A stretch of DNA of 37,703 nt from Candidatus Hecatellales archaeon B24 (GCA_001593855.1 LUCC01000004.1:1-37703), one strand, 5' to 3'. Shown: positions 7,814-37,703, counted from the stretch's first letter. Translations and numbers: made by a program. Notes: generated from the sequence alone by a model not told the origin.

Positions 7814-7831
7814 CCCTTAAAGGCGAAACCT

Positions 7832-10116: not shown

Positions 10117-10117
10117 C

Positions 10118-10681: not shown

Positions 10682-10736
10682 CTAGGTTTTCCTCCACCTT
10701 AAGTTTATCCTAAGACAAATAAAGTTTCCCAACAAC

Positions 10737-10746
10737 AATATAAAAA
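10737..10746 (-). promoter_or_regulatory. TATA box for tbp
   Basis: The minus strand reads TTTTTATATT about 60 nt upstream of the GTG start. Confidence 0.4.
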
Positions 10747-10759
10747 CTGAACTCTACCC

Positions 10760-11281: not shown

Positions 11282-11353
11282 CCCCGTTAACCCTTAAACC
11301 CTCGATGCTTCCAGGTTCATCCTACCCCTGTAGAATAGTTATTAAAAGAGTTT

Positions 11354-14251
11354 ATGGTTTTCCCTAGGAGGGGGCTGATGAAGCAGAGGGGCGGAGAAAA
11401 CGTTTTCTCCCTGCTGGTTAAACCCTTAAGGAAAGCCGTAAAGGAGAGAGGCTTCTCCAGTCCAACCCAGCCTCAAAGAGAAGCCATCCCCCCAATCTTG
11501 GAAGGCGAAAACGTCCTGTTAATAGCTCCCACCGGAACGGGGAAAACTGAGGCGGCAATTCTACCCATCCTCAACAATTTCCTTTTAATGCCTGAGAAGC
11601 CTCTGGGAGTGAAAATCCTGTACATCACGCCTTTAAGAGCCTTAAACAGAGACCTTCTGGAAAGGCTTGAATGGTGGTGTAACAAGCTTGACATCAAAGT
11701 GGCTGTCAGACATGGGGACACCGAGGTTGGAGAGCGGAGCAGGCAGGCCAGAAGCCCCCCCGACATGCTTATAACCACTCCTGAAACCCTTCAAGCCATC
11801 CTGCCAGGCAGGGTGATGCGCCGCCACCTCAAAGCCGTGAGATGGGTTATCGTAGACGAGGTTCACGAGCTAGCCTGCGACAAGCGTGGAGCCCAGCTTG
11901 CCCTAGGCCTTGAAAGGCTTAGAAGGATTGTAGGATTCGACTTCCAGCGGGTGGGGCTTTCAGCAACCATAGGCTCCCCTGAAAGGGTTGCCCGTTTCCT
12001 CGTAGGCTCCAACCGCCCCTACAAAATCGTCAAGGTTCCAGTAGCAAGAGACATGAGCCTCCAAGTGCTCTACGTCAAGCCTGAACCTGGAGACGAGGAG
12101 GCAGCTGCTAAACTTTACACGCATCCTGAGGTTGCGGCGAGGCTTAGGGTTATCCGCAGCCTCATAGAGAAGCACGGCTCGGTGCTGCTGTTCACTAACA
12201 CCCGTGCTGTAGCCGAGGTTCTGGCAAGCCGCTTCAAGGTTTGGGACTTAGATTTCCCCGTAAGTATTCACCACGGAAGCCTTGCTAAGCCCTCCCGGAT
12301 AATGGCTGAGCAGGGGCTGAAGTCTGGAAGCCTTAAAGGGCTTGTGTGCACCAGCTCCCTAGAGCTTGGAATAGACGTGGGAAGAGTGGACCTGGTTATC
12401 CAGTATAACTCGCCTAGGCAGGTTACAAGGCTTATCCAGCGGGTTGGAAGAAGCGGCCACAAGATTGGCAGGATATCTAAGGGAGTCGTCATAACGCTGG
12501 ACTCCGACGACACCATGGAGGCCATGGTTATCGCTAGGAGGGCGCTGGCTGAAGAGTTGGAGCCAGTTCAGATACCTGAAAAGCCCTACGACGCCTTATG
12601 CCATCAGCTGGCAGGGCTTCTAACCGAGCGGAACCGCTGGAGGTATCTGGAGGTCTTAGAGGTCTTCGGCAGAGCCTACCCCTACGAGGGCCTCACCTCA
12701 ACGGACCTAGAGAAGGTTTTATCCTACATGCATGACAGGTATCCGAGGCTTGCCTGGGTTGCCTTCGAAGACAAGGTTTTCCTTCGCCCCCAACGCTTGA
12801 AAAGCCTCTACGAATACTACTTTGGAAATCTCTCCATGATCCCCGACGAGAAACAGTATCTGGTAGTAGACCAGACTACGGACACCCCTGTAGGCGTCCT
12901 AGATGAAGCCTTCGTAGCCGAGTACGGTGAGCCTGGAATCAAGTTTATCGTTAGGGGAAGCCCCTGGAAGATAACCGCTGTCTACGGGGACCGCATATAC
13001 GTTAAGCCTGTGAACGACCCCACCGGGGCTATTCCAAGCTGGGTTGGAGAGGAAATCCCTGTCCCCCTAGAGGTCGCCTTAGAGGTTGGAGCCATCCGAA
13101 GGTTCGTGGAAGAGCAGGTTAAAGCCGGGGTAAAGGAGAAAGAAATAGTTAGAGAGCTCTCAGCCAGGTATCCGGCTTCCCCCTCAACGGTGTTCGAAGC
13201 CATCCGGGAGGTTGTCGAGCAGGCTGAGAAAGGATTTCCCATCCCCACAGACAAGCTGATAACAGTTGAAGAGTGGCGGGGCTACCTCATCGTTCAATGC
13301 TGCTTCGGAACCCTTGTAAACCGGACGCTTGCCAGAGTTATAGGCCAAATCCTATCCGAAGAATATGGTGAAGACGTAAGAGTTCAGGAGGACCCCTACC
13401 GGATAGTGGTTGAAAAGGCGGGAGGCCTCACAGGAGAAGCCATGAAAAGCCTCCTCCTAGAGCTTCCAAGCAGAGACGTGAAACGCATAGCCCTAGAGGC
13501 AGCTGCAAAGACAGGCCTCTTTAAGCACAGGCTAATCCACGTTGCAAGAAAGTTTGGAGCCGTCGCCAAGGGTGCAGACTTCACAGACTTCAGCCTCCGC
13601 CAGCTTGTCAGAAGCTTTGAAAACACGGTGGTCTTCGAGGAGGCTCTGAAAGACATGGAAGCCAACGACATGGACCTGCCTGGCCTCCTCCACGTTTTAG
13701 AGCTTATACGTGAAGGCGAAATAAGGGTTGCCACGGTCAAGAAGCGTAGGGTTCCAACCCCCATAGCCAGAATAGGCATTCAGAGGATAAGCAGGAAAAC
13801 CGATATCATTCCGTCTGAGAAGCTTAAGGGAATCCTCGTGGAGTCTGCTAGGGCAAGACTTCTGAACGAAGCCCTAATCCTAACATGTGTAAACTGCTGG
13901 GAGTACGTGGAAAACGTCAGAGTTAAAAATCTTCCCGACCCCATCCAGTGTCCCTGCTGCGGCTCAGCCAGGGTGGGCATGGTTAAAGAGGCCCTAGAAG
14001 ACGTGCGGAGAATCGCCGAGAAGAGGGGTAGAAACCTTAAAGGAAGGGAGCAGCGGATTTTGAACACGGCCCTAGAGGCAGCTGAACTCGTAGAACGCTA
14101 CGGTTTTCCAGCGGCTGTAGCCCTCGCAGGCCACAGGCTGAAGCCTAAAGACGTTGAAAGCATACTTGAAAGAGAGCCTCAGCTTGGAGAACGCTTCTAC
14201 GAGCTGATTATAGAAGCTGAAAGAGAAGCCTTAAAGCGGAGGTTCTGGTAG
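11354..14251 (+). CDS. Lhr-family ATP-dependent DNA helicase
   Basis: APTGTGKTEAA (motif I), VDEVHE (motif II), SAT, and a long DEAD/H-associated C-terminal region with a CVNC...CPCCG zinc ribbon. ATG 11378 (after GGAGGGGG) may be the true start. Confidence 0.9.
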   Translation: MVFPRRGLMKQRGGENVFSLLVKPLRKAVKERGFSSPTQPQREAIPPILEGENVLLIAPTGTGKTEAAILPILNNFLLMPEKPLGVKILYITPLRALNRDLLERLEWWCNKLDIKVAVRHGDTEVGERSRQARSPPDMLITTPETLQAILPGRVMRRHLKAVRWVIVDEVHELACDKRGAQLALGLERLRRIVGFDFQRVGLSATIGSPERVARFLVGSNRPYKIVKVPVARDMSLQVLYVKPEPGDEEAAAKLYTHPEVAARLRVIRSLIEKHGSVLLFTNTRAVAEVLASRFKVWDLDFPVSIHHGSLAKPSRIMAEQGLKSGSLKGLVCTSSLELGIDVGRVDLVIQYNSPRQVTRLIQRVGRSGHKIGRISKGVVITLDSDDTMEAMVIARRALAEELEPVQIPEKPYDALCHQLAGLLTERNRWRYLEVLEVFGRAYPYEGLTSTDLEKVLSYMHDRYPRLAWVAFEDKVFLRPQRLKSLYEYYFGNLSMIPDEKQYLVVDQTTDTPVGVLDEAFVAEYGEPGIKFIVRGSPWKITAVYGDRIYVKPVNDPTGAIPSWVGEEIPVPLEVALEVGAIRRFVEEQVKAGVKEKEIVRELSARYPASPSTVFEAIREVVEQAEKGFPIPTDKLITVEEWRGYLIVQCCFGTLVNRTLARVIGQILSEEYGEDVRVQEDPYRIVVEKAGGLTGEAMKSLLLELPSRDVKRIALEAAAKTGLFKHRLIHVARKFGAVAKGADFTDFSLRQLVRSFENTVVFEEALKDMEANDMDLPGLLHVLELIREGEIRVATVKKRRVPTPIARIGIQRISRKTDIIPSEKLKGILVESARARLLNEALILTCVNCWEYVENVRVKNLPDPIQCPCCGSARVGMVKEALEDVRRIAEKRGRNLKGREQRILNTALEAAELVERYGFPAAVALAGHRLKPKDVESILEREPQLGERFYELIIEAEREALKRRFW

Positions 14252-21660: not shown

Positions 21661-23580
21661 TTGATAGATGGACTGCTTATAGGTTTAACCGTTGGGTTCC
21701 CTGTGGTTACAGGCCTCTTGGCCCGGGGTCTTCCAGGCGTTTGGTCAAGAAGACTGCTGGTAGTTTTAACCACCATCGTTCTAATCGTCTCCTCGCTTCT
21801 ACTCCTGTGGAGAGGCCCCTACACCTATACTCTCCCAGAGTTTTGGGACGAGGTTATAGTGGTTTTAGACTTCATCCTGCTCTTTTACTTCCTCTATCTG
21901 GGCTTCAGAATCAGGCATCCGCTTGTAGTTGTTTTAACTTTGCTCCAGCTGGTTCCCCTCGCCTACTTTGAGGCTTCTCTCCCGGTTATCCACGTGGAGC
22001 CTACGCTTGCCATAGACTTCCTAGCCATCATCATGTGCCTAATCATATGCGTTATAGGCTCTCTCATCTGCGTTTACGCTTTAAGCTACATGGACGAGCA
22101 TGAGGAGCACCTGCACCTGGCCAAAACCAGGCAGCCCAGATTCTTCCTTTACATGCTGCTTTTCCTCGGAGCCATGAACGGGCTGGTTTTCGCCAACAAC
22201 CTTTACTGGCTCTACTTCTTCTGGGAGGTTACCACGCTGTGCTGCTTCCAGCTTATCAGGCATGATGAAACACCGCAGGCGGAAAAAAATGCTGCCCTGG
22301 CCCTCTGGATGGGCCTCATAGGCGGAGTAGCCTTCGTCGCCAGCCTTTTCATCGGCTACTACCAAGTTGGAAATCTGGGTCTCAACAGTCTGATGTCTGC
22401 TCAGCCTGCCGCTATTATCCTTTTAGCCTTCGCCTGTCTGGCGTTAGCTGCCTTCACCAAGTCTGCTCAAGTACCCTTCCACAGCTGGCTTCTAGGTGCG
22501 ATGGTGGCGCCTACTCCCGTTTCCGCCCTTCTCCACTCCAGCACCATGGTTAAGGCAGGCGTATACTTGGTGCTTAGGATTGCTCCAGCCCTTCAGGGTA
22601 CAGCTTTAACTTCGGCTGTAGCCTTTGTGGGAGGGTTGAGCTTTCTGGTTACCGCGGTTCTCGCCATAAGTCAGAGGGAGTCTAAGCGTATCCTCGCCTA
22701 TTCAACCATTGGAAACCTCGGCCTCATCATTCTCTGCGCCGGAGTTAACACTCCTCTGTCCATGGTTGCCGCCCTGCTTTTACTGGTTTTCCACGCCATG
22801 TCTAAGGGGCTTCTCTTCCTCGGTGCCGGAATAGTTGAGAACAGGGTTTACAGCCGGAATATTGAGGATTGGGAGGGGCTTATCGCAAGGTTTCCCCTGA
22901 TTTCAGCCATCATGCTGGTGGGGATGTTCACCATGTTCCTTCCCCCCTCTGGGATGCTTCTGGCTAAATGGGTAACGCTGGAGGCTGTAGCCTCCTCTCC
23001 AGCCCAGTGGGCTATAACGCTCGTAACAATCCTCGCGGTTGGAAGCGCGGCTACAACCCTCTTCTGGTCGAAGTGGATGGCTCACCTGCTCTTCCACCCG
23101 TCCACAGCTGAAAGGGCTAAACGGGAGAAGCTTCAGCTTCCATACTTGGCTTCAACCATCACCATAACTGCGCTGGACATAGCTGTAAGCGTTATAGCCG
23201 CGGTTCTGGTTGCAGCCTTAGTGATTCCAACGGTTAAGCCCTGGTACGCGGTTAAACTGGCTTTGCCGCTTCTAAACCTCTCAACGGGAATCGGAGCATT
23301 CCCCATATGGCCTCTCTTCCTAGTTATGGCGGTAGCCTTAGCCCTTGCGGTGATGGTTTTCAGGGCTAAAGGTGGAAAGCTGGTTTCACCCTACATGTGC
23401 GGGGAAAACGTTGAAGGCGCTCCAGCCTCCTTCCGCTCCACAGCCGACCTAGAATTCAACTTTGACGCTTCAGGAATGTTCTTCGATAGAGCACTGGGAG
23501 AACCTAAAACCAACAGGTATGTAACCGCGGTTGGAATCCTCCTAACGGTTCTGGTTTTCGCCTTGGCTTTGGTGGTATAA
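21661..23580 (+). CDS. group 4 [NiFe]-hydrogenase membrane subunit, NuoL/MrpD/EchA-like antiporter module
   Basis: 639-aa polytopic protein with the proton-antiporter core (AFTKSAQVPFHSWLLGAMVAPTPVSALLHSSTMVKAGVYL). Confidence 0.85.
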   Translation: MIDGLLIGLTVGFPVVTGLLARGLPGVWSRRLLVVLTTIVLIVSSLLLLWRGPYTYTLPEFWDEVIVVLDFILLFYFLYLGFRIRHPLVVVLTLLQLVPLAYFEASLPVIHVEPTLAIDFLAIIMCLIICVIGSLICVYALSYMDEHEEHLHLAKTRQPRFFLYMLLFLGAMNGLVFANNLYWLYFFWEVTTLCCFQLIRHDETPQAEKNAALALWMGLIGGVAFVASLFIGYYQVGNLGLNSLMSAQPAAIILLAFACLALAAFTKSAQVPFHSWLLGAMVAPTPVSALLHSSTMVKAGVYLVLRIAPALQGTALTSAVAFVGGLSFLVTAVLAISQRESKRILAYSTIGNLGLIILCAGVNTPLSMVAALLLLVFHAMSKGLLFLGAGIVENRVYSRNIEDWEGLIARFPLISAIMLVGMFTMFLPPSGMLLAKWVTLEAVASSPAQWAITLVTILAVGSAATTLFWSKWMAHLLFHPSTAERAKREKLQLPYLASTITITALDIAVSVIAAVLVAALVIPTVKPWYAVKLALPLLNLSTGIGAFPIWPLFLVMAVALALAVMVFRAKGGKLVSPYMCGENVEGAPASFRSTADLEFNFDASGMFFDRALGEPKTNRYVTAVGILLTVLVFALALVV

Positions 23581-23581
23581 A

Positions 23582-24463
23582 ATGGATGGATGGCTTCTCA
23601 GCCTCACGGTTGCCGTCGGACTTGTGGTAGCAGCTCCCTTTATAGGAGGAATCCTAAGCGGGATAGACCGGAAGCTCACGGCGAGAATGCAGAACAGGGT
23701 TGGACCCCCAATTATTCAGCCTTTCTACGACCTGCTGAAGCTTTGGGGGAAGGAAAGCTTTGTGGCAAGCCGCTTCCAAGCTCTGCTGGCTTTCTCCTTC
23801 ATGGTTTTCTCGGTGGTAGCCTTCACCCTGCTTGTCCTAGCCCAAGACCTTCTGCTCATAGTGTTCGTCATTTCGCTGGCCGACGTATGCCTTGTTCTCG
23901 GAAGCTACTGTGGAAGGTCTCCCTACAGCTATCTTGGGGGGAGAAGGGAACTGCTTCAAATGCTCGCCTACGAGCCTATTCTGATACTTGCCGTCGTAAA
24001 CATTTACGCGGCCACAGGAAGCTTCATGGTTGAAGGCGTTTTCAAGCTTGGCTTCCCGCTGGTAATACTGCTGCCAGGAGTTTTCCTAGCCCTCCTCATA
24101 GCCCTGCCCATCGAAGCCAGAAAGTCCCCCTTCGACATCTCAGCCAGCCACCACGCCCACCAGGAAATAGTCCGAGGAGTCTTCACCGAGTTTTCAGGCT
24201 TCTCCCTAGCCCTCATAGAGTTCGGCCACTGGTTCAAGCTAATCTTCTACCTCGCCCTCCTCGCGCTTTTCTGGGTGCCACTCCTATGGCTGGGAGCCGT
24301 TCTCGCCTTCATCTTCTACTTCATAATCATGATTGTAGACAATATCTTCCCTAGGCTCACTTGGACTTTTATGTTGAAGGCTGTCTGGCTGGCAGGCTTC
24401 ACCCTTGCAGTTTCAAACCTTATCGTTTTAGCACTGCTGGGAGTTGGTTTAGCATGGGCGTAA
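23582..24463 (+). CDS. group 4 hydrogenase membrane subunit, NuoH/EchB/HycD-like
   Basis: GIDRKLTARMQNRVGPP..QPFYDLLKL signature of the NuoH/HycD family, 8-TM profile. Confidence 0.9.
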   Translation: MDGWLLSLTVAVGLVVAAPFIGGILSGIDRKLTARMQNRVGPPIIQPFYDLLKLWGKESFVASRFQALLAFSFMVFSVVAFTLLVLAQDLLLIVFVISLADVCLVLGSYCGRSPYSYLGGRRELLQMLAYEPILILAVVNIYAATGSFMVEGVFKLGFPLVILLPGVFLALLIALPIEARKSPFDISASHHAHQEIVRGVFTEFSGFSLALIEFGHWFKLIFYLALLALFWVPLLWLGAVLAFIFYFIIMIVDNIFPRLTWTFMLKAVWLAGFTLAVSNLIVLALLGVGLAWA

Positions 24464-24887
24464 TGGCGAAGTCTAGAGCTAAGTCTCCTTGGATACTGCA
24501 TGTTAACTGTGGAAGGGCTGCGACATAGAAATCCTAGCGTGTTTAACCCCAAGGTTCGATGTGGAGAGGTTTGGAATGCTTCACATGGGAAATCCTAAGC
24601 ACGCTGACATTCTGCTTATAACAGGGCCTGCCAACCGGAGGAATGCTAGGGTGCTTAAAACCCTCTACGAGCAGACTCCTGAGCCGAAGGTTGTAGTGGC
24701 TGTGGGAACCTGCGCCTGCACCGGAGGCATATTCCACAACTGCCCCAACGTGCTGGGAGGAGTTGACAAGGTTATCCCCATAGACGTCTACGTTCCAGGC
24801 TGCGCTGCAAGGCCTGAATCCATCATAGACGGCGTGGTTTTGGCTCTGCAGAAGCTTGCGGAAAAGAGGGTGGAGGAGGAAGCCTGA
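24463..24887 (+). CDS. hydrogenase small subunit, NuoB/EchC-like, interrupted by an apparent 1-nt frameshift near 24514-24518
   Basis: ATG 24463 (overlapping the upstream TAA) encodes MAKSRAKSPWILHVNCGR, then hits TAG at 24526. The shifted frame continues GCDIEILACLTPRFDVERFGM..PKHADILLITGP..GTCACTGG..VYVPGCAARPE (track ORF 24561-24887). Confidence 0.8.
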
Positions 24888-26665
24888 TGGCGTCGCAGGT
24901 TGTCGAAGTACCCGTAAGCAAGGCTGAGCTTTTCACGAAAATCTACGAGCTTGCCGCAGCCAAGGCCAGGTTTATAGCTATAACATGCAAGGACCTAGAA
25001 GACCGCTTCGAAGTCATCTACCACTTCGAGGAAGACCTGAAAGTTGTGAACGTTAAAGTTGAAATCGGGAAGGACGAGGTTTTACCCAGCATAACCAGCA
25101 TATACCCCTGTGCTTTCTTGGCCGAAAACGAGATAAAAGACATGTTCAAGGTGAACTTTGCAGGCTTAAGCCCTGACCTCCAGGGTAGGCTTCTGAAAAC
25201 GGCTGACGCCACTCAGACCACCCTTCTGAAGCCTGCGGTAGGAGTTCAGCCTCCAAAGTTCCGGCTGGAGGCAAGATGCGGCCAGCAGTGTCCAGCCGGA
25301 ATAGACATACCCCGCTATGTTAGGCTTATCGCGGAAGGAAAATACGTGGAATCCTTCCAGACTATTCTTGAGAAGGCTCCTTTCCCCGCCATTCTTGGAA
25401 GAGTATGCTTCGCCCCTTGCGAGGAAGGATGCAGGCAGGCTAAAAACGAGCAGCCCATACCTATAAGGCTGCTTAAACGCTTCGTAGCAGACCAGGTTGG
25501 CGTGAAGAAGCTTAAGGTGGAAAGGCTTAAGTCCACCGGTAAGAAGGTTGCCATCGTCGGGGCGGGGCCGGCAGGCCTTACAGCCGCCTACTACCTCGGC
25601 CTCCTAGGCCATGAGGTAACGGTTTTCGACGAGTTTCCCAGGCCTGGAGGAATGATGCTTTCAGGCATACCTGAGTACAGGCTTCCCAAGAAGCTTATGG
25701 AGGCTGAGATTAAGGCGAGAATGGAAGAGGCTGAAGTTGAGCTTAAACTTGGAAGGAAAATTGAAAGCCTAGACGAGCTTCTGGGCGGAGGCTACGACGC
25801 CGTTTTCATAGCTGTGGGAGCCCATGAAGGCGTGAAGCTTGGTGTTGAAGGAGAAGACCATCCGAAGCTCTTAGACTGCCTCCAGCTTTTAAGGGAGGTT
25901 AATCTTCAAGGTGAAAGGCCTAAGATAGGCCGAAAAGTGGTGGTTATAGGCGGGGGAAACAGCGCCATAGACGCTGCAAGGGTTTCACGGAGGCTTGGAG
26001 CTGAAGACGTAACCATCTTTTACCGGCGGACTAGGAAGGAGATGCCTGCCACCCCAAGAGAGGTGGAAGAAGCTGAAGCTGAAGGCGTTAAACTGGAGTT
26101 CCTTGTAGCTCCAACCAAGGTTCTGCCAGGCGAATCCCCGGCGAAAATGGAGTTCATAAGGATGAAGCTTGGAGCACCCGATGCCTCTGGAAGGCCTAGG
26201 CCTGAACCCGTTCCCGGAAGCGAGTTCACCGTGGAGGCTGACGTTTTCATTAGGGCCATAGGCCAGGTGGTCACCGTTCCCAAGGGATTCAACCTTAAAC
26301 TGGACAGGCGGGGCCGAATAGAAGTTAACCCTGAAACCTTGGAGACAAGCCGCAGCGGGGTTTTCGCTGGGGGAGACGCTGTGACAGGCCCCGCCTCGGT
26401 GGCTGAAGCTATAGGAGCAGGATGGAAGGCTGCCAGCGCCATAGACAGATACCTAGGCGGCCAAGGCCTTAAAGAGCGTGAACTGAAGGAAGAGTTAACG
26501 TTGAGGCCCAGCGTTGAAGACGTTTTAGAGCTTGAGAGCATTCCGGTCGCCATGCTTCCTGTGGAGCAGAGGCTTAAAGGCTTCGACGAGGTGGAGTTAG
26601 GCTACCGGGAGAAGGAGGCTGTTCAGGAGGCTAAACGCTGCTGGAGGTGTGACTGGTATGAGTAA
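24887..26665 (+). CDS. fusion protein: NuoC/EchD-like hydrogenase subunit (about aa 1-105) plus a GltD/NfnB/SudA-type NAD(P)H:FAD iron-sulfur oxidoreductase module
   Basis: N-terminus: FEVIYHF...PSITSIYPCAFLAENEIKDMFKVNFAG (30-kDa subunit pattern). Then CGQQCPAGIDIPRYV...GRVCFAPCEEGC (Fer4_20-like), VAIVGAGPAGLTAAYYL (FAD), VVVIGGGNSAIDAARV...YRR (NADPH), GVFAGGD. The C-terminal tail is FDEVELGY..EAVQEAKRCWRC. Confidence 0.85.
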   Translation: MASQVVEVPVSKAELFTKIYELAAAKARFIAITCKDLEDRFEVIYHFEEDLKVVNVKVEIGKDEVLPSITSIYPCAFLAENEIKDMFKVNFAGLSPDLQGRLLKTADATQTTLLKPAVGVQPPKFRLEARCGQQCPAGIDIPRYVRLIAEGKYVESFQTILEKAPFPAILGRVCFAPCEEGCRQAKNEQPIPIRLLKRFVADQVGVKKLKVERLKSTGKKVAIVGAGPAGLTAAYYLGLLGHEVTVFDEFPRPGGMMLSGIPEYRLPKKLMEAEIKARMEEAEVELKLGRKIESLDELLGGGYDAVFIAVGAHEGVKLGVEGEDHPKLLDCLQLLREVNLQGERPKIGRKVVVIGGGNSAIDAARVSRRLGAEDVTIFYRRTRKEMPATPREVEEAEAEGVKLEFLVAPTKVLPGESPAKMEFIRMKLGAPDASGRPRPEPVPGSEFTVEADVFIRAIGQVVTVPKGFNLKLDRRGRIEVNPETLETSRSGVFAGGDAVTGPASVAEAIGAGWKAASAIDRYLGGQGLKERELKEELTLRPSVEDVLELESIPVAMLPVEQRLKGFDEVELGYREKEAVQEAKRCWRCDWYE

Positions 26666-27785
26666 GGGTGCAGCCACCCGGAAATACACGGTTTTCCCCT
26701 TCGGACCTCAGCATCCTGTTCTGCCCGAGCCCATTCAGCTCAGGTTCACCGTGGACGAGGAAAAAATAGTTGACGTAGGCGTGAACGTGGGCTATATTCA
26801 CCGGGGGGTGGAAAGAGCCTGCGAGCTTAACGACTACCAGCGGAACGTATACCTCTGCGAAAGGGTCTGCGGAATATGCAATGTAATGCATGCCTTATGC
26901 TACTGTATGGCTTTGGAGAAGCTTGTGGACGTGGAGGTTCCTGAAAGAGCCCAGTATTTGAGGGTTATATGGGCAGAGCTTAACAGGCTTGAAAGCCACC
27001 TCCTATGGCTGGGCCTCCTAGCCGACGCCATGGGCTTCGAAAGCCTCTTCATGCAGTTCTGGAGGGACAGGGAAATCGTTATGGACCTCCAGGAGCGTAC
27101 AGGTGGAAACAGGGTTATACCTTCAACCTGCGTGGTTGGAGGGGTTAGAAGGGACATTCTTAAGCCCTTGGCTGAACGTTTCAGGGAAGGCATGATTGAG
27201 CTTAGAAGGCGGGTGGACAAGCTTGCCCCAGTCATTCTTAAGGACCCAGCCTTCAAGAGGAGAACCGTTGGGAAAGGCTTTCTGTCCTATGACGACGCCC
27301 TGATGCTTGGAGCCGTAGGCCCCACAGGCAGGGGAAGCGGCCTAGTGAAAGACATCAGGCTTGAAGGCTACCAGGCCTACAAGCACCTCAAATTTGAGCC
27401 CGTAGTGGAAAAGGACGGCGACGTTTACGCCAGAACCCTTGTAAGGTTCTACGAGGTATACCAGGCCATAGACTTGATTCTCGAAGCCTTAAAAAGCATG
27501 CCTGAAGGGGAAATCAGGGTTAAACCTGAAAAGTGGCCTGAAGGAGAGGCTGTGGCAAGGGTTGAGCAGCCTAGAGGAGAACTTTTCTACTATGTTAAAG
27601 GGAACGGAACTAACAGGCTTGAAAGAGTTAAAATTCGAACTCCAACCCTCGCCAACATTCCGCCTTTGCTTGCCATGCTTCCAGGATACGAGGTAGCAGA
27701 CATACCTGTAATCGTTCTCTCCATAGACCCCTGCATAGCCTGCACTGAAAGGATAACCCATGTTAAGAAGGGAGGGGGAAACTGA
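26658..27785 (+). CDS. [NiFe]-hydrogenase large subunit, group 4 (EchE/NuoD-like)
   Basis: Both Ni-Fe ligand pairs are present: RVCGICNVMH (26862-26891) and DPCIACTER (27727-27753). GGAGGTG lies 8 nt upstream of ATG 26658. The track start GTG 26649 is also possible. Confidence 0.9.
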   Translation: MSKGAATRKYTVFPFGPQHPVLPEPIQLRFTVDEEKIVDVGVNVGYIHRGVERACELNDYQRNVYLCERVCGICNVMHALCYCMALEKLVDVEVPERAQYLRVIWAELNRLESHLLWLGLLADAMGFESLFMQFWRDREIVMDLQERTGGNRVIPSTCVVGGVRRDILKPLAERFREGMIELRRRVDKLAPVILKDPAFKRRTVGKGFLSYDDALMLGAVGPTGRGSGLVKDIRLEGYQAYKHLKFEPVVEKDGDVYARTLVRFYEVYQAIDLILEALKSMPEGEIRVKPEKWPEGEAVARVEQPRGELFYYVKGNGTNRLERVKIRTPTLANIPPLLAMLPGYEVADIPVIVLSIDPCIACTERITHVKKGGGN

Positions 27786-28120
27786 TGGTTCGAATGCTGC
27801 CCAACATCCTGAGAAACCTCTTCTCCAAGCCTGCAACGGTTAAACATCCCTTCGTGAAGAGGGAACCCTTCCCCGGCCACCGTGGAACGATAACCTTCGA
27901 CATGAAGAAATGCGACCTATGCCAGGACTGTGAGAGACTCTGCCCTCCAGTAGCCATAAAAGTTGACCCTGAAGCCAGAACCATAACCTACGACCCCTTC
28001 AAATGCATATACTGCTACCTCTGCGTTACCAACTGCCTTCAAAGAGCCATAAGAGGGCGTCCAGCCTACACCCCGCCAGCCTACCAGAAAGAGATAGTAT
28101 ACTATAAGCCTGAAGAATAA
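27785..28120 (+). CDS. 2x[4Fe-4S] ferredoxin-like hydrogenase subunit (EchF/NuoI-like)
   Basis: CDLCQDCERLCP and CIYCYLCVTNC cluster motifs. The ATG overlaps the upstream TGA. Confidence 0.85.
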   Translation: MVRMLPNILRNLFSKPATVKHPFVKREPFPGHRGTITFDMKKCDLCQDCERLCPPVAIKVDPEARTITYDPFKCIYCYLCVTNCLQRAIRGRPAYTPPAYQKEIVYYKPEE

Positions 28121-32325: not shown

Positions 32326-32910
32326 CTACCCGAAATGCTTTTTGAAAACTTGGTAGAGGTCTGCTGGCTTCTCCAGTATGAACACGCCTTCCATTCTAGT
32401 CAGCCTTTCAACGTTTTCCACGTCTTCTCTTCTCACCCTCAGCTTTAGGCTGCGGCCGCTGGGAAGCTTTGTAACTATAACGCCTTCCCTGTAATCGGAG
32501 GGCATTACGTAGACGGGGACGAAGGCTTTAAGAGCCATAATCGCCGAATTAGAGAGCAGGCTGTCCGCTATCCCCAGCGAAATCTTCGCAACAGTATTCG
32601 ACGTGGCCGGAGCTATCAGTAAAAAGTCAAACTTTCCCAGTTGCAGCTGGCCGGCTAGAAACGGCGAATTCGCGTCAGTTTCAACCCAAAGCCTGCCGAA
32701 GTTCTTCTCCAAATCGCCGGTAAGCCTGTAATATTTCGCGACTAGGCTTCCAGCCTTAGAAAGGAAAACCTTTATGTCTGCGATGCCCTCGTATTTTCTC
32801 TTTATTTTCTTCATGGTTTCAACGGTTTCAGTCAGTCTGTCCCCGCTGCCTGTGATTCCCCAAGCAACTTTTCCCTTCTTTTCCGCCTTCAAGGCGTGTA
32901 GGCACCTCAC
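32326..32910 (-). CDS. archaeoflavoprotein AfpA-like (HFCD/Dfp-fold flavoprotein)
   Basis: VAWGITGSGD N-terminus and LIAPATSNTVAKISLGIADSLL flavoprotein motif. Confidence 0.75.
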   Translation of the reverse strand: MRCLHALKAEKKGKVAWGITGSGDRLTETVETMKKIKRKYEGIADIKVFLSKAGSLVAKYYRLTGDLEKNFGRLWVETDANSPFLAGQLQLGKFDFLLIAPATSNTVAKISLGIADSLLSNSAIMALKAFVPVYVMPSDYREGVIVTKLPSGRSLKLRVRREDVENVERLTRMEGVFILEKPADLYQVFKKHFG

Positions 32911-33497
32911 TCTTTAACTTCAAGCTTCTCCAGGAATTCAGCAAATCTTTTAACGGTTTTTCTCAGGCTTCTAAATCCCTCCAAGTCTTTCTTGACGTCT
33001 TCCAAGGTGTCTTTAGACCAGAAGGTGGCTCCAAGGTTTGCTCCGAAAGCTCCTCCGCTAACCGGGATAACCCCGTTTAAAATGTAGAAAGTCATGATTT
33101 GCTGTAATGCTAGCTCTTGGCCGCCAGCCCTGTCTCCTCCAACCGCAACAGCCATGCCGATTTTATACTTGAAGATGTTAGGGTTTGACGCGACTAGGGC
33201 TCGGCATCGGTCCATAACAGCCTTCATCTGCCCGCTTACCCCGCCGTTGTAAACGGGGGTGGCGATTATTATTCCTCTGGCTTTCCCGAGTAAAGGGTAA
33301 AGCTCATACATGTCGTCTTTAATCGCGCATTCCTTGTTTTTCAGGCAGTAGTCGCAGTGCTGGCAGGGAGCAATCTTCCTGCCTCTGACGGTGAAAAACT
33401 CCGTTTTAAACCCCTTCTTCTCCAGCATTTTCAGGGCTTCCTTCAGAACATGCTCCGTTGCCTGCCTTCTAGGGCTTCCGCATATGCCCAGTATCAT
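32907..33497 (-). CDS. iron-sulfur flavoprotein (Isf; NADPH-dependent FMN reductase fold)
   Basis: ILGICGSPR flavodoxin-like start and the compact Isf cluster motif CQHCDYCLKNKEC (CX2CX2CX5C). Overlaps the afpA-like gene by 4 nt. Confidence 0.8.
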   Translation of the reverse strand: MILGICGSPRRQATEHVLKEALKMLEKKGFKTEFFTVRGRKIAPCQHCDYCLKNKECAIKDDMYELYPLLGKARGIIIATPVYNGGVSGQMKAVMDRCRALVASNPNIFKYKIGMAVAVGGDRAGGQELALQQIMTFYILNGVIPVSGGAFGANLGATFWSKDTLEDVKKDLEGFRSLRKTVKRFAEFLEKLEVKE

Positions 33498-33598
33498 AGC
33501 TCAGAAACTCTCCGAATTTCAAAATCGTGGAAGTCTCTTTCCTCTTTAGGATAGGGAAGGGGATGAAAATATAAAAAGTTGGAGGGGGTTAGGTAGGA

Positions 33599-33760
33599 CT
33601 ACTTTAAAGGCTCAAACTGTTCTTTGGGAGCCCCGCAAATCGGGCAAATCCAGTCTTCAGGAAGGTTTTCAAACCTGGTTCCCGCCGGAATGTTGTTTTC
33701 AGGGTCTCCCTTTTCCTCGTCGTATATGTACCCGCAGATGGTGCACCTGTACTTTGCCAA
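33599..33760 (-). CDS. rubredoxin
   Basis: Unlisted 53-aa TTG-start ORF (M)[52 protein letters not shown] with both CxxCG knuckles. Confidence 0.85.
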
Positions 33761-33763
33761 GGC

Positions 33764-34120
33764 TTAACCCTCCGCATGGACAGGAGCGGTTTTCGGGGTG
33801 CCTCCCCTCTTCACCAAGCGATAGTAAGCGTAGGTCATAGGTTCTCCACCCGTCAAAACATTGGCGTCCACGATTTCGCCTGCGAAGAGGGTATGGCTGC
33901 CAACGTCAAGCTCCCCTTTAACCTCCACCTCCAACCATGCCAACGTGTTATCCAAAACTATAGGAACACCGGTTCTACCTATTTTAAAGTTGACACCTTC
34001 AAGCTTGTTGATTTCCCTGCCTGACTTGAAGCCGAACCTTCCAATAAAAGACAGCGGAGTGTCCTTTGAAAGAGCTGAAACCGGAGAAATAGAGTGCTTC
34101 GACTGGTGGTTCTGCCACAA
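33764..34120 (-). pseudogene. flavin reductase-like (FMN split-barrel) domain, N-terminally truncated remnant
   Basis: Only the C-terminal half of the domain is present (FGFKSGREINKLEG...LEVEVKGELDVGSHTLFAGEIV). The frame is closed by TAA at 34127-34129, right against the divergent rubrerythrin gene. It is in frame with the rubredoxin gene across a single TAA. Confidence 0.55.
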
Positions 34121-34141
34121 GAAAATTTAAATGGCGTGCTG

Positions 34142-34750
34142 ATGCTGAATGAAGGGGGAATAAATTTGGGTGAAACCATAAAAAACCTGGTAAAAGCTTT
34201 CATCGGAGAAAGTCAGGCGAGAAACCGTTACACCTTCTACGCGAAGGCTGCCAAGCAGGAAGGATACGAGCAGATTGCAGAAATCTTTCTCATCACGGCG
34301 GAAAACGAAAAGGAACATGCAAGCACCCTCTTCAAACTTATCAACGAGCTTAAAAAGCAAAGTGGCGGAAGCCTGGATGAAATTAGCGTGGAGGCGGCAG
34401 CTCCAACCGTGTTCGGCACCACCGCGGAAAACCTGAAGGCGGCAATCGCCGGAGAAAACTACGAGTACACCAAAATGTATCCTGAGTTTGCTGAAGTTGC
34501 GGAGAAGGAGGGCTACCCTGAAATCGCGAAGAGGCTTAGGGCGATTGCAAAGGCTGAGGAACACCACGAGGAAAGATATAGAAAACTGCTGAAAGAAGTG
34601 GAAGCTGGCACGGTTTTCAAGAAGGAGAAGGAAGTCTGGTGGGTGTGCAGGGAATGCGGCTACGTCCACTACGGGAAGGAGCCTCCTGAGAAATGTCCCT
34701 CCTGCGACCACCCCAGAAGCTACTTCCAAATTAAATGCGAAGAATATTAA
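34142..34750 (+). CDS. rbr: rubrerythrin
   Basis: Diiron four-helix motifs ([30 protein letters not shown]) plus a C-terminal rubredoxin-like CRECG...CPSC. TTG 34166 after GAAGGGGGA is an alternative start. The track start 34094 is over-extended. Confidence 0.9.
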
Positions 34751-34763: not shown

Positions 34764-35141
34764 TTGACTGAACTGAAACAGGTTTACAGGTGCAATGTCT
34801 GCGGGAACATAGTTGAGGTTTTACATGCTGGAAAGGGGGAGCTGGTATGCTGCGGCCAGCCTATGGAGCTACTTCAAGAGAAAACAGAGGAAGCTGGGAA
34901 AGAAAAGCATGTGCCCGTGATAGAGAGAACAGAGGCTGAAGTAAAGGTGAAAGTGAGCTCCATTTCTCACCCAATGGAGGAAAACCATTTCATAGAGTGG
35001 GTTGAACTTTTAGCCGACGGCAGAGTGTACAGAAAGTTTCTGAAGCCCGGAGACCTGCCGGAAGCCGAATTTCAGGTGAAAGCTGAAAAGGTGGAGGCAA
35101 GAGAATACTGCAGCGTTCACGGGCTGTGGAAAACCTCCTAA
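34764..35141 (+). CDS. dfx: desulfoferrodoxin (2Fe superoxide reductase)
   Basis: N-terminal desulforedoxin motif CNVCGN...CCGQPM, and centre II residues KHVPVIE...H....EH..W.....C..HG. Confidence 0.9.
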
Positions 35142-35148
35142 CCCCACA

Positions 35149-35153
35149 TTTTT
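35149..35153 (+). terminator. oligo-T archaeal terminator candidate after dfx
   Basis: T5 run 8 nt downstream of the TAA stop. Confidence 0.3.
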
Positions 35154-35253
35154 AAGCTAGGTCATGAAGGGTGCTTGCTAAGAGCTTAAACGTTAAGAAG
35201 CATAGTAGAAAGGTAAGCTGGATTGGCTTGTATGAAGAGGGTGGAAGCTGAAA

Positions 35254-35580
35254 ATGGCTGAACGCGTATGGAAGGGGAAGCCCATACCGGAGTTCAAACT
35301 TTTCCAGGAGAGGTTTCCCAAGCTTTCAGAAGAATTCACCGAGTTGGTCCGTGAAACTTTAGAAGAATCAAAGCTGGAAAGAAAAATACAGGAGCTGGTC
35401 ATAGTTGCCCTTCTCGCAGGCAAGTTTGAAGGAGGCTTCAAGTTCCACCTGAAAGAAGCTATAAGGCACGGGGCGACCAAGGAAGAAGTAGCTGGTGCTA
35501 TTCTTTTAACCCTGCCCTACTGTGATGTGGCTACTTTCCTGAAATCGCTGGCCTGGGCAAGGGAAGAAGGAATACTTTAA
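35254..35580 (+). CDS. carboxymuconolactone decarboxylase (CMD) family protein
   Basis: LERKIQELVIVALLAG......H...A...GATKEEVAGAILLTLPY pattern. Confidence 0.75.
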   Translation: MAERVWKGKPIPEFKLFQERFPKLSEEFTELVRETLEESKLERKIQELVIVALLAGKFEGGFKFHLKEAIRHGATKEEVAGAILLTLPYCDVATFLKSLAWAREEGIL

Positions 35581-35760
35581 CATGAAAACATGGAAATTAT
35601 CGCCCGAAGCGTACCTAATATCATTAAGATGATGTTTGAAACACTGGAGTTGAAGGACTAAATGAGGTAACGGAGGTTTAAGCCCCATCTGTCACGGGTT
35701 CTAGGAAAACTTGATTCGCCAAAATTACTGAACAGGGAAAGACTTTTCGCATAATCCTGC

Positions 35761-36012
35761 TCAAATTTCTTCGGCTATCTTCTTGGCTTCTGGGAGGCGT
35801 TTTGAATTTAGGGCTACATCGAGGCCGTGACGGGTGGGATGAGGTATAAGCCAGCTTTCCTTTATCAGGCGTTTCACGGCTTTCTTGACTTCGCCTCTCA
35901 GGTGTTTGGGGAAGCCCTTTGGGACATTATCGACGGGTGTGTGTTTGGCTCCGGCTGCATGGAGCCTATAAAATTTAGCTATGATTGCTCGGTCGATGTC
36001 GGTCAGGACCAT
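35761..36012 (-). CDS. hypothetical small DNA-binding-like protein
   Basis: 83-aa ATG ORF (..KHTPVDNVPKGFPKHLRGEVKKAVKRLIKESWLIPHP..), divergent from the wHTH gene. Family not recognised. Confidence 0.45.
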   Translation of the reverse strand: MVLTDIDRAIIAKFYRLHAAGAKHTPVDNVPKGFPKHLRGEVKKAVKRLIKESWLIPHPTRHGLDVALNSKRLPEAKKIAEEI

Positions 36013-36111
36013 GTCTTGCCTCCCTTTAGGTTTTGTAGCTTATAAGCATTATGTTCTAAATGAAACATTAGCATATTTTAAAAAACATTTAAATGTTTCT
36101 TAAAAGAAATA

Positions 36112-36118
36112 TTTATAA
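36112..36118 (+). promoter_or_regulatory. TATA box for the 36155 wHTH gene
   Basis: TTTATAA about 40 nt upstream of ATG 36155, with GGAGG at 36143-36147. Confidence 0.4.
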
Positions 36119-36154
36119 GGCTGAAACATGTCCATTTAATTTGGAGGAAAAACT

Positions 36155-36502
36155 ATGCCAAAAACCCGGCAAGCCGAAATAAACCCTCCAGCCCTCCAGC
36201 AACTCTTCGGTCCAACCGCCATGGCTAAGCTTCTAGACTTCTTAACCCTCTACCATAGCCTAGACTATCCGAAGTCTGAGATTGCTGAGAACTCGGGGAT
36301 AGGCTGGAAGACACTACACACCCTCTGGCCCCTCTTGGAACACTATGAACTCGTGAAGCACACCCGCGATGTGGGCAGAGCCAAACTCTACCGAACCAAC
36401 ACGGACAGCCCCATCATAAAAGCCCTACACCAACTGGCCCACCAAATATCAACCCACAACCTTGAGAAACAGGCAAAAAACGGGTACCCGTCCTCGCCAT
36501 AG
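36155..36502 (+). CDS. winged-helix transcriptional regulator
   Basis: KLLDFL.....YPKSEIAENSGIGWKTLHTLWPLLEHYELVKHTRDVGRAKLYRTN is an HTH plus wing pattern. Confidence 0.6.
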   Translation: MPKTRQAEINPPALQQLFGPTAMAKLLDFLTLYHSLDYPKSEIAENSGIGWKTLHTLWPLLEHYELVKHTRDVGRAKLYRTNTDSPIIKALHQLAHQISTHNLEKQAKNGYPSSP

Positions 36503-36559
36503 CCAAAGCTTAAAGGGGATAGCATGGTTCCCACGATGAGCTGAGTCATAAGTCTTCAG

Positions 36560-37074
36560 CTACTTATTTTTAAACCAGTTGGGTCTCATGAGGTGGGCTA
36601 GGTCTCGCCAGGATAGTTTTGCGTATCTTGTGACGGTTTCGATGTGTTTCCAGCCAAACCAGTCTTGGAGTTGCATGAGGCCGAAACTGTATTCGCTGGC
36701 CAGCTGGCATGCGCGCTGTGCTCGGAACCAGTGGTCATAGAGGTGGACGCCTACTTTTCGCCCTATCTCCCCCACGATTTGATGGGCTCTGACGCGGCTG
36801 AGCCTACGGCAAACACTCCAAGAACCTCCTTAAGGATCTTCACAACCTCCTCAAGCAGGACGGCGGCTTCCGTTTGATCTACGAAAACCTCCAAGATACG
36901 CCTATCCTCACGCAAATTCCCCATCGTAAGCCCCATGATCATATTAAACTTGAAAGCGCCAAAGACATCAACCACATTATCTAGGGTTTCAGACTTCAAG
37001 TTTGTTTCAACAGAAAACTCAGCAAACTTTCGATCGGGCGCATAAACGGCAACAGGCAACTCTTTAGGATACAA
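36560..37074 (-). pseudogene. tyrosine recombinase/integrase, frameshifted catalytic-domain remnant
   Basis: The downstream frame carries RLSRVRAHQIVGEIGRKVGV-HLYDHWFRAQRA (HxxR) and GWKHIETVTRY (catalytic Tyr). The upstream 103-aa ORF (TTG 37074, strong GAGGAGGTGG RBS) ends in another frame, and the integrase frame is closed by TAA about 19 codons upstream of GTG 36775. Confidence 0.5.
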
Positions 37075-37209
37075 ATATTTCCACCTCCTCTATTGGAGAG
37101 GAGATACAATCAGCTATAACTGTGTCGTTTTCAAGCCTATAACTAGCTTAAATCCTTTAACGTTGAAGCAGGAGGCCCCTTCCAATAGCATGTGAATTTG
37201 GTTAGTTCA

Positions 37210-37536
37210 TTATCTAATGCGAGTTTCATACTGCTTTTTTAGCCTTTTAATCTCCTTGACAAAGTCAAACCTGCCCTTACGTGAGCTTTTAAGACCTGTT
37301 TCTCTGCAAAGTTTCTCAATAATAATCTTCTCTATGATTGTTGCTCCGGTTCCGAAGAGGCTGGCTAGGGCTGCATGAAACTTCTCGGGGACATATGATA
37401 GGTTTTCTCTGGCTATGTGGAAATCCCTTTCCAGGTAAAAGTATATTACGTGTTTGACGCTTTCACCGAATGAATTAAAAGCTTTATCGGTAGCCTCTTG
37501 CAGAGCCTTCTCGAAACTCTTATCACCTTCACTCAG
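37210..37536 (-). CDS. hypothetical protein; ORF lacks an ATG/GTG/TTG start
   Basis: 108-codon open frame (LSEGDKSFEKALQEATDKAFNSFGESVKHVIYFYLERDFHIARENLSYVPEKFHAALASLFGTGATIIEKII..) preceded by GGGAGGT. The only start-like codon is CTG 37536. Confidence 0.35.
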   Translation of the reverse strand: MSEGDKSFEKALQEATDKAFNSFGESVKHVIYFYLERDFHIARENLSYVPEKFHAALASLFGTGATIIEKIIIEKLCRETGLKSSRKGRFDFVKEIKRLKKQYETRIR

Positions 37537-37549
37537 AAGTCAAACCTCC

Positions 37550-37703
37550 CTAAACAACTGGAATAAGCCTCACTTTTATTCTGTCCTTTAAAAACTCGGT
37601 TTTAAAGCCATAGAAAGGAGTATAACGTTTTGTACTATATGAGAAGGTTATGCCATCCTCATTTATGAGGCGGAAGATGTAATCTGCTATGTCGGAGAGT
37701 TGC
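37550..37703 (-). CDS. hypothetical protein, 3' end only (continues beyond the window)
   Basis: The open frame ..QLSDIADYIFRLINEDGITFSYSTKRYTPFYGFKTEFLKDRIKVRLIPVV ends at TAG 37550-37552, which abuts the RBS of the next ORF. Confidence 0.35.
   Translation of the reverse strand, partial: QLSDIADYIFRLINEDGITFSYSTKRYTPFYGFKTEFLKDRIKVRLIPVV

Follow-up and report, generated by a model that had tools for sequence, protein, structure and literature searches.

We analysed a stretch of 37,703 nucleotides from Candidatus Hecatellales archaeon B24 (GCA_001593855.1, LUCC01000004.1:1-37703; hereafter the window), and in particular an operon at positions 21,661 to 28,120 that resembles the ech operons for energy-converting [NiFe]-hydrogenases. 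An earlier note, made from the sequence alone, had proposed that six co-directional genes in echABCDEF order may encode an ion-translocating H2:NAD(P)+ oxidoreductase whose NuoC-like subunit is fused to a flavoprotein module. Domain calls with hidden Markov models (Pfam and NCBIfam) agree with that gene order and with the subunit assignments (Table 1). Our map of open reading frames (ORFs) also agrees with the note as to how the genes are joined: there is a 1-nucleotide gap at 23580/23582, and the other junctions are overlaps of stop and start codons (TAATG at 24461-24465, TGATG at 24885-24889, ATGAGTAA at 26658-26665, and TGATG at 27783-27787). At 26658-26665, the ATG of the large subunit overlaps the stop codon of the fusion gene. 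Of the six genes in the note, we find five to be intact, on the plus strand; the exception is the NuoB-like gene, which is frameshifted by a deletion of 7 nucleotides.

Table 1. Genes and domains of the operon, with positions in the window
Feature	Position	Strand	Details
EchA-like antiporter-type membrane subunit	21661..23580	+	639 amino acids (aa); Proton_antipo_M 1e-51 and Proton_antipo_N (Pfam)
EchB/NuoH-like membrane subunit	23582..24463	+	293 aa; PF00146 NADHdh 7e-44
EchC/NuoB-like gene, 5' fragment	24463..24528	+	ATG at 24463, 21 codons (MAKSRAKSPWILHVNCGRAAT), TAG at 24526-24528
EchC/NuoB-like gene, site of 7-nucleotide deletion	24515..24516	+	CTGCAAC present in relatives; from alignment
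EchC/NuoB-like gene, 3' part, in the other frame	24507..24887	+	..GCDIEILACLTPRFD...; no proper start codon; Oxidored_q6 2e-31, NuoB (NCBIfam) 7e-41
EchD/NuoC-like domain of fusion, residues 1-92	24887..25162	+	Complex1_30kDa 2e-13; folded in AlphaFold2 model
Interdomain linker of fusion, about 30 residues (95-124)	25169..25258	+	pLDDT below 50, without secondary structure
StnC/NfnA-type NADPH:FAD:2x[4Fe-4S] module, residues 125-592	25259..26665	+	Matches to PDB sequences, Foldseek, invariant ligands
C-terminal segment of fusion, residues 543-592 (..GFDEVELGYREKEAVQEAKRCWRCDWYE)	26513..26665	+	Counterpart of the N-terminus in ordinary GltD/NfnL proteins
EchE/NuoD-like [NiFe] large subunit	26658..27785	+	375 aa from ATG; Complex1_49kDa 6e-58, NiFeSe_Hases 8e-12
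EchF/NuoI-like 2x[4Fe-4S] subunit	27785..28120	+	111 aa; Fer4-family (Pfam) and NuoI-type (NCBIfam) matches

Judging from its genes and motifs, the operon genuinely is of the group 4 [NiFe]-hydrogenase type, with the gene order of Ech. It has the six-gene echABCDEF order with a single antiporter-like subunit, and the NuoH-like, antiporter-like, and NuoI-like 2x[4Fe-4S] subunits are all encoded within it. It departs from Ech in that there is no small stand-alone EchD. Instead, the EchD-like domain is fused to a flavoprotein module of 470 aa.

A permuted flavoprotein module fused to the NuoC-like subunit

The fusion gene (24887-26665, plus strand) encodes 592 aa with Pfam matches to Complex1_30kDa (2e-13), Fer4_20 (7e-24), and Pyr_redox_2 (5e-31). 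The fusion that the earlier note described is borne out, as the same gene order with the same fusion recurs in distant archaea and bacteria (see below). In an AlphaFold2 model of the fusion protein, built with 23 homologues, the mean predicted local distance difference test score (pLDDT) is 86.9 and the predicted template modelling score is 0.76. The model has two confident domains with a flexible linker of about 30 residues between them; across residues 1-90 of the NuoC-like domain, pLDDT (as means of 10-residue blocks) is 79-93. At the 50%-cluster level, the nearest relatives of the NuoC-like domain are mostly stand-alone EchD-like proteins of 105-157 aa, and only a handful of the representatives are fused (about 600 aa). 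If fusions of about 593-604 aa are set aside, the nearest relatives are stand-alone EchD-like proteins of 120-155 aa. This fits a compact fused family that would have been derived from an Ech-like ancestor.

The motifs that had been pointed out in the flavin module are in place (VAIVGAGPAGL for FAD, and VVVIGGGNSAIDAARV...YRR for NADPH), but the module, which was taken to be of the GltD/NfnB/SudA type, is of another type. Based on sequence comparisons, it is a circularly permuted module with a lysine-ligated cluster, as in StnC and NfnA (the Bfu-type NfnABC enzymes). If residues 130-589 are compared to the sequences in the Protein Data Bank (PDB), then the best scores are for 9bov_A (3e-110), 9n5u_A (5e-109), and 8oh5_C, which is StnC (1e-105). 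Scores are lower for NfnB/NfnL (4ylf_B, 8e-85; 5jca_L, 5e-77) and for GltD (6e-56). The same three chains rank first when the AlphaFold2 model is searched with Foldseek (template modelling scores of 0.70-0.72, with 0.72 for 8oh5_C, and about 43% identity).

In the module, the full set of residues that bind the cofactors in an NADPH/FAD/2x[4Fe-4S] unit is present. The cluster ligands are C131, C135, C174, C178, C182, K197, C585, and C588; the GxGxxG motif for FAD is at 225-230; and for NADPH there are GGG at 355-357 and YRR at 379-381. Across 23 sequences that are 50-79% identical, there is no variation in the seven ligand cysteines, K197, the Rossmann motifs for FAD and NADPH, or YRR. In the alignment, K197 pairs with K170 of StnC. 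K170 of StnC and K165 of NfnA from T. sibiricus are lysine ligands of the FAD-proximal [4Fe-4S] cluster (PMC10482914, PMC12018979). This lysine ligand is kept in all NfnABC enzymes and is a hallmark of the type, whereas the bifurcating NfnL has a glutamate there (PMC12018979).

The evidence for permutation comes from a stand-alone GltD-like protein that is encoded beside one of the related operons (locus L089). The alignment of this protein to the fusion is split: residues 54-444 of the protein pair with residues 131-522 of the fusion, and residues 2-50 pair with residues 543-589 (E = 9e-9). Because the N-terminus of the GltD-like protein aligns to the C-terminus of the fusion, we conclude that the module has the GltD/NfnL fold in a circularly permuted form. 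The C-terminal tail of the fusion (...GFDEVELGYREKEAVQEAKRCWRCDWYE) matches residues 540-566 of StnC, in which the flavoprotein domain is an insertion (PMC10482914).

At the sequence level, then, the module shares with StnC and NfnA the two Rossmann folds, the two [4Fe-4S] sites, the ligation by three cysteines and a lysine, and the permuted topology. It does not share their setting, as it is not part of a NuoG/Fdh-like subunit and has no HydBC-like bifurcating partner. No NuoE-, NuoF-, or NuoG-like domains were called on the six proteins of the operon, nor did the genes called in the related loci that we inspected have any. The module does not match NfnSL either, as it has lysine in place of the glutamate of NfnL and there is no NfnS gene in the operon. 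The FAD of StnC and NfnA is non-bifurcating, and electrons from NADPH leave it singly along the iron-sulfur clusters; bifurcation requires a separate HydBC-like FMN module (PMC10482914, PMC12018979). Given the lysine ligand and this precedent, Nfn-like bifurcation at the fused FAD is unlikely, which makes the alternative that was raised in the earlier note, an Nfn-like entry point, less likely.

Hydrogenase and membrane subunits

The large subunit has both pairs of Ni-Fe ligands, as had been noted: motif L1 is RVCGICNVMH (26862-26891) and motif L2 is DPCIACTER (27726-27752). These match the definitions C[GS][ILV]C[AGNS]xxH and [DE][PL]Cx[AGST]Cx[DE][RL] (PMC7886697). Mbx and Ehr have a NuoD homologue without the Ni-Fe cysteines, but all four cysteines are present here, so the subunit does not look like an Mbx/Nuo-type derivative. 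Both motifs are also kept in all 10 of the large subunits that we compared. Among solved chains, the closest to the large subunit are MbhL (6cfw_L, 5e-73) and HycE (7z0s_E, 2e-69).

The large subunits vary in how they end. Six of the 10, including the one in the window, have a tail of 6-10 residues past L2 (for example, ...CTERITHVKKGGGN), and the other four end exactly at ...CTER (L084, L085, L089, and L090, the last from an archaeal context). C-terminal processing during maturation may differ between these two groups.

The closest solved chains to the antiporter-like subunit are MrpA and NuoL. It retains FWEV (with the glutamate of transmembrane helix 5), KSAQVPFHSWL (the lysine of helix 7), PTPVSALLHSSTMV (the histidine of helix 8), and HAMSKGLLF (the lysine of helix 12). 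The NuoI-like subunit has both CxxCxxCxxxC motifs (CDLCQDCERLC and CIYCYLCVTNC).

Distribution and genomic context of the family

In a search of 5.8 billion protein sequences, the GltD-like part turned out to have nearly 8000 relatives. Among these, the 120 best are 50-98% identical and nearly all of them are full-length (about 590-725 aa). All but one of the 120 are annotated with PF00329, PF14691, and PF07992 together. Among the source labels are Hecatellales/Bathyarchaeota, Methanomethylicota/Verstraetearchaeota, Korarchaeum, "Odinarchaeia", "Nitrososphaeria", and Dehalococcoidia. The window itself comes from the Bathyarchaeia (Hecatellales).

The earlier note had suggested searching for the same architecture beside ech-like genes. 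We found the identical operon, with the same six genes in the same order, in ten loci (L001-L003, L084-L087, and L089-L091), and also in L088 except for an in-frame TGA that we discuss below. Besides Bathyarchaeia and Dehalococcoidia, the loci with this operon come from MAGs (metagenome-assembled genomes) that are labelled as Methanomethylicota, Korarchaeum, and Odin. Across the ten loci, the antiporter-like subunit has 626-656 aa, the NuoH-like subunit 285-293 aa, the NuoB-like subunit 141-151 aa, the fusion protein 590-610 or 723 aa, the large subunit 359-390 aa, and the NuoI-like subunit 106-115 aa. We also scanned species-representative genomes with an alignment of the NuoC-like domain and the junction. 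This gave 80 loci, nearly all of which are plain GltD-like genes, as the scan settled on generic GltD motifs; it is not a taxonomic census. Its sole clear fusion was L004, from Dehalococcoidales.

In L091 (71% identical), the operon has the same upstream neighbours as in the window (TYW2, archaeosine TGT, TatA, and TatC). The surroundings in the window are housekeeping genes: as the earlier note had it, there are no hyp genes and no ferredoxin gene among the 34 flanking ORFs that we scanned. In L087 and L089, hypA, or hypA and a cobW/hypB-like gene, adjoins the operon.

Many bacterial members of the family (L085, 9001-11172, and proteins P0023-P0060) are longer, at 723-724 aa, and have a response-regulator receiver domain (PF00072) ahead of the NuoC-like domain. 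One of them, P0030, is labelled Dehalococcoidia. These receiver domains have a pair of acidic residues (DE), a candidate phospho-acceptor aspartate, and a conserved lysine, which would imply phosphorelay control over a core subunit of the hydrogenase.

In two unrelated loci, L086 and L088, and only in those, NfnS/NfnL-like gene pairs lie near the operon. They are divergently upstream of it (3081-5314 in L086; 3-1818 and 2007-3356 in L088). In L088, a glutamate dehydrogenase gene is also near the NfnS/NfnL-like pair. A possible explanation for these neighbours is a functional link to the balancing of NAD(P)H and ferredoxin in amino-acid fermenters. L086 (ENA ERZ27256834; P0021) is labelled by NCBI as "Patescibacteria group bacterium", yet the contig encodes TBP and has archaeal-looking genes, so this label is probably wrong.

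In L089, which is on a bacterial-looking contig, an Mbx/Ehr-like cluster (1-5562) lies directly upstream of the fused operon (5742-12259). This cluster includes a NuoD homologue that lacks the Ni-Fe cysteines as well as the stand-alone, unpermuted GltD-like gene mentioned above. No NuoI-like gene was called between NuoB and the flavoprotein gene, and the locus begins inside the cluster. Between this stand-alone protein and the fused module of the same locus there is 76% identity, and a run of about 120 residues is almost free of mismatches, which suggests a recent duplication or gene conversion between the two complexes. The arrangement also suggests that modules of this kind are regular partners of complex-I-type cores.

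A frameshift in the NuoB-like gene of this copy

In the window, the NuoB-like gene begins in one frame and its remainder (GCDIEILACL...) is in a second frame, which is open only from 24507. If this gene is aligned to those of L001 and L002, then the window lacks 7 nucleotides (CTGCAAC) between 24515 and 24516, where the relatives read ...HVNCGSCNGCDIE.... The deletion destroys the codon for the second cysteine of the invariant cluster motif CGSCNGCDIE. This motif, as C-G-[SG]-C-N-G-C-D-I-E, is intact in all ten relatives and none of them have the deletion, so an intact NuoB-like subunit with four cluster cysteines is found in 10 of 10 relatives but not in the window.

The closest relative is informative about the age of the deletion. 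L001 is from a MAG of the Hecatellaceae whose fusion protein is 98% identical to the one in the window; the nucleotide sequences are 92.9% identical, and the 7-nucleotide deletion is the sole indel over 3769 aligned nucleotides. Codon differences from L001 are mostly synonymous, both in the fusion gene (85 synonymous to 14 non-synonymous) and in the shifted part of the NuoB-like gene (23 to 4). Because there is only one indel, the other genes are intact, and the substitutions are overwhelmingly synonymous, the inactivation, if there was one, must be very recent. This copy would be either a very recent pseudogene or the result of an assembly error, and we consider the latter to be equally plausible.

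The chance that the deletion is real, and that the operon is a recently inactivated pseudogene from which this organism makes no functional hydrogenase, is in our view substantial, if a little short of even. The deletion is there in the sequence, it shifts the frame and removes an invariant cluster ligand, and it is absent from the ten relatives. Programmed frameshifting is unlikely to rescue the gene, because we did not find a slippery heptamer within the 22 nucleotides in which the two frames overlap (24507-24528), and because the product of a -1 shift would still be missing the invariant cysteine. On the other hand, the rest of the operon is intact, this is a single indel in 3.77 kb when compared to a relative of 92.9% identity, and the excess of synonymous changes extends into the shifted part of the gene itself; an error in the assembly or the consensus sequence of a MAG would account for the data just as well.

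Proposed reaction and alternatives

We lean, by a modest degree, towards the view that the locus represents a conserved family of six-subunit, Ech-like, ion-translocating [NiFe]-hydrogenases that have NADPH as a built-in partner. Given the Ech-type operon, the recurring fusion, and the complete set of cofactor-binding residues, an NADPH-linked membrane hydrogenase seems to be the most economical reading of these sequences. The H2:NAD(P)+ oxidoreductase that was originally proposed thus stands as far as the operon, the fusion, and the cofactor sites are concerned, while the type of module is corrected and this copy turns out to be frameshifted.

We infer the specificity for NADPH, the path of electrons between subunits, the coupling to ions, and the direction of the reaction from sequence relationships. 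NADPH would pass a hydride to the non-bifurcating FAD. Electrons would then leave the FAD singly. They would pass first through the two clusters of the module, next through the pair of clusters in the NuoI-like subunit and the one cluster in the NuoB-like subunit, and would end at the Ni-Fe site, where protons would be reduced. The reverse path should also be possible. The translocation of ions via the NuoH-like and antiporter-like subunits would be driven, much as it is in Ech, Mbh, and complex I, by turnover at the interface of the NuoD-, NuoB-, and NuoH-like subunits.

The standard potentials (E0') are -414 mV for H+/H2 and -320 mV for NADP+/NADPH, so the reduction of NADP+ by H2 would yield about 18 kJ/mol under standard conditions. 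If H2 is at about 10 Pa (E of about -296 mV) and the NADP pool is reduced (about -360 mV), it is instead the production of H2 from NADPH that would yield energy, at about 12 kJ/mol. The earlier statement that H2 to NAD(P)+ is exergonic therefore holds at standard H2 pressure, but the sign reverses at environmental levels of H2. Because the couple is near equilibrium and the sign flips at around 10 Pa of H2, the reaction is probably reversible. In H2-rich settings, the enzyme could make NADPH from H2 and also build an ion gradient; in fermenters that live at low H2, it could vent electrons from NADPH as H2.

Several points weigh against this proposal. First, the frameshift in the NuoB-like gene means that the hydrogenase is possibly never made from the copy in the window. 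Second, the NuoI-like subunit, which is where ferredoxin docks in Ech and Mbh, is kept unchanged, and ferredoxin may remain a partner. Third, the path from the distal cluster of the module to the clusters of the NuoI-like subunit is assumed. Fourth, our two reasons for naming NADPH rather than NADH are homology and the YRR motif. Finally, the driving force is small: with about 18 kJ/mol under standard conditions, the translocation of one ion per two electrons would be marginal.

The second of these points leads to an alternative that we regard as unlikely but worth keeping in mind, namely an enzyme with three sites. As in Ech, the NuoI-like subunit would be the docking site for ferredoxin, and the NADPH module would be a second point of entry or exit. 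Such a complex might act as a membrane-bound ferredoxin:NADP+ oxidoreductase to which the hydrogenase is attached as a branch. The other option is confurcation or bifurcation among H2, ferredoxin, and NADPH, for example by 2 H2 + Fd_ox + NADP+ <-> Fd_red + NADPH (where Fd is ferredoxin). The NuoI-like subunit is of normal size and has both of its cluster motifs, relatives of the module are found in bifurcating complexes, and the NfnS/NfnL-like pairs that are divergently upstream in L086 and L088 tie the locus to the balancing of ferredoxin and NAD(P)H. However, the homologous FAD of StnC and NfnA is non-bifurcating, and the HydBC-like FMN module that would be required is not encoded in the operon. 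Also, there is no ferredoxin gene in or beside the operon at any locus that we examined, and the covalent fusion to a core subunit points to the module as the dedicated partner.

It is quite improbable, in our judgement, that the module serves an acceptor other than NAD(P)H, such as polysulfide or elemental sulfur, a disulfide, or an organic substrate, or that it is just a redox sensor. With another acceptor, the complex would act as an H2:acceptor oxidoreductase, much like the role of "sulfide dehydrogenase" that was once proposed for SudA. Modules of the GltD family do serve many reactions (in dihydropyrimidine dehydrogenase, in glutamate synthase, and in SudA in vitro), and the N-terminal receiver domain of some bacterial members is a regulatory elaboration. 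But both Rossmann motifs and YRR are invariant, the nearest relatives (at 43% identity) bind and oxidise NADPH, and there is no additional catalytic domain, as the protein stops just past the CxxC that binds a cluster.

Lastly, we can dismiss with near certainty the idea that the ORF of 592 aa is a chimera of the assembly or a pair of genes with a missed stop codon, which the earlier note had listed as a possible refutation. The ORF is continuous in independent assemblies (well over 100, from NCBI, JGI, ENA, and Logan) and in nine loci that we inspected. Gene callers did divide the relative in L088 into genes of 137 and 455 aa, but this split is an in-frame TGA on the codon for the invariant Cys131 and not a gene boundary.

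The TGA in L088 (7397-7399, on a contig from JGI 3300069122) gives RFYGR*REQCPG. It could encode selenocysteine at a cluster ligand or it could be a point error. The RNA downstream of it does not fold any better than shuffled sequence does (z = 0.31). As for an unfused, two-gene form of the family, the best match to the NuoC-like domain (P0121, 137 aa) is a fused gene that is cut by a TGA at Cys131, and the further short matches are ordinary stand-alone EchD-like proteins.

Comparison to known systems

The closest overall counterpart of the proposed NADPH-linked hydrogenase is Ech (EchABCDEF) of Methanosarcina barkeri and Thermoanaerobacter kivui, which belongs to group 4e of HydDB. It has the same six subunits in the same order, one antiporter-like subunit, and the Ni-Fe ligands. 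Ech has been shown to translocate ions and to be reversible (PMC9356269). In Ech, EchD is small and stands alone and the partner is ferredoxin, whereas the EchD-like domain in the window bears the predicted NADPH/FAD/2x[4Fe-4S] module of 470 aa. The Mbh of Pyrococcus furiosus (group 4d, 6cfw) has the closest solved large subunit, MbhL, and the same logic in its peripheral arm, but its 14 subunits include an Mrp-type Na+/H+ module, and it uses ferredoxin and has no flavoprotein.

For the module, the closest counterparts are StnC and NfnA (8oh5_C, 9bov_A, and 9n5u_A), with which it shares about 43% identity across its length, the RCxxC segment after the Rossmann domains, the cluster with three cysteines and a lysine, and the NADPH motifs. 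Those enzymes are soluble, and in them the module sits within a NuoG/Fdh-like subunit and supplies a bifurcating FMN module of the HydBC type. In the window, the module is attached to a membrane hydrogenase, at the NuoC-like domain, and NuoE-, NuoF-, or NuoG-like genes are absent.

Other complexes also combine a core like that of complex I with a flavoprotein. A GltD-like flavoprotein has been noted in the Mbx-like operons of the Thermotoga type (Degli Esposti 2015, PMC4758237). These Mbx-like/Ehr complexes, of which the upstream cluster in L089 is an example, likewise join a complex-I-type core and an NAD(P)H flavoprotein of the GltD family, but their NuoD homologue lacks the Ni-Fe cysteines and their flavoprotein is separate and unpermuted, while the complex in the window keeps the Ni-Fe site and a NuoI-like subunit. 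In complex I (NuoEFG) and in the F420H2 dehydrogenase (FpoF), a flavoprotein was likewise added to a core of the NuoBCDHI type and feeds the clusters of NuoI and NuoB. The flavoprotein of complex I is unrelated (FMN and NuoF, as opposed to FAD and a GltD-type protein here), and its acceptor is quinone instead of protons.

Soluble [NiFe]-hydrogenases of groups 3b and 3d (such as SHI of P. furiosus) interconvert NADPH and H2, which is the same chemistry that we predict here. They are cytoplasmic, they lack membrane subunits, they are built from other families of large and small subunits together with a different diaphorase module, and they do not conserve energy. To our knowledge, all of the characterised group 4 hydrogenases draw electrons from ferredoxin, formate, or CO, and the NAD(P)H-linked hydrogenases are soluble and do not conserve energy.

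NADPH-linked group 4b complexes with subunits similar to the beta and gamma subunits of SHI were predicted in silico (PMC13582414); their module differs from the one we describe. The label "4g" has been given to group 4 enzymes from Korarchaeia and Bathyarchaeota BA1, and the 4g enzymes of Korarchaeia, BA1, and Culexarchaeia have routinely been treated as ferredoxin-coupled. We did not find a description of a NuoC-GltD fusion in a hydrogenase operon in the open-access full-text literature, although this absence is not proof. As far as these comparisons go, the family appears to be conserved and uncharacterised.

We tentatively suggest, with a little less than even confidence, that the family is a respiratory NADPH:H+ oxidoreductase (an "NADPH-dependent Ech"), and that it would be the first ion-translocating membrane hydrogenase to use a pyridine nucleotide directly.

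Other features of the window

About 4-6 kb downstream of the operon (32326-34750) is a small oxidative-stress/flavin cluster, with genes for a flavoprotein (PF02441), a protein similar to NADPH-dependent FMN reductases (PF03358), and rubrerythrin. Rubrerythrin has also been noted at the end of Mbx-like operons of the Thermotoga type (PMC4758237). On the minus strand at 2043-2186, there is a 144-nucleotide match to the tRNA model of Rfam that covers the full model and scores 51 bits. This is presumably an archaeal tRNA that contains an intron; ARAGORN did not report any tRNA in the window. The last 2.5 kb (35141-37703) has only short ORFs, of up to 115 aa, and this region has no Rfam match and no direct repeats.

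Implications

If our proposal is correct, then a membrane hydrogenase that is wired to NADPH would be a new coupling site in anaerobic bioenergetics. Bathyarchaeia, Korarchaeia, and Methanomethylicia with fermentative or acetogenic lifestyles, as well as Dehalococcoidia, would be able to conserve energy as they vent H2, or to make NADPH from H2. The group 4 enzymes of these large, uncultured lineages are usually drawn as ferredoxin-dependent, so if they belong to this family, the metabolic reconstructions would need to be revised. In some bacteria, the fused receiver domain would place the enzyme under direct phosphorelay control. The enzyme would also be a candidate for the regeneration of NADPH driven by H2. 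Finally, the family would be an independent natural case of a complex-I-type core that gained a module for oxidising nucleotides, with this N-module acquired independently of the NuoEFG of complex I, and so it would bear on how complex I evolved.

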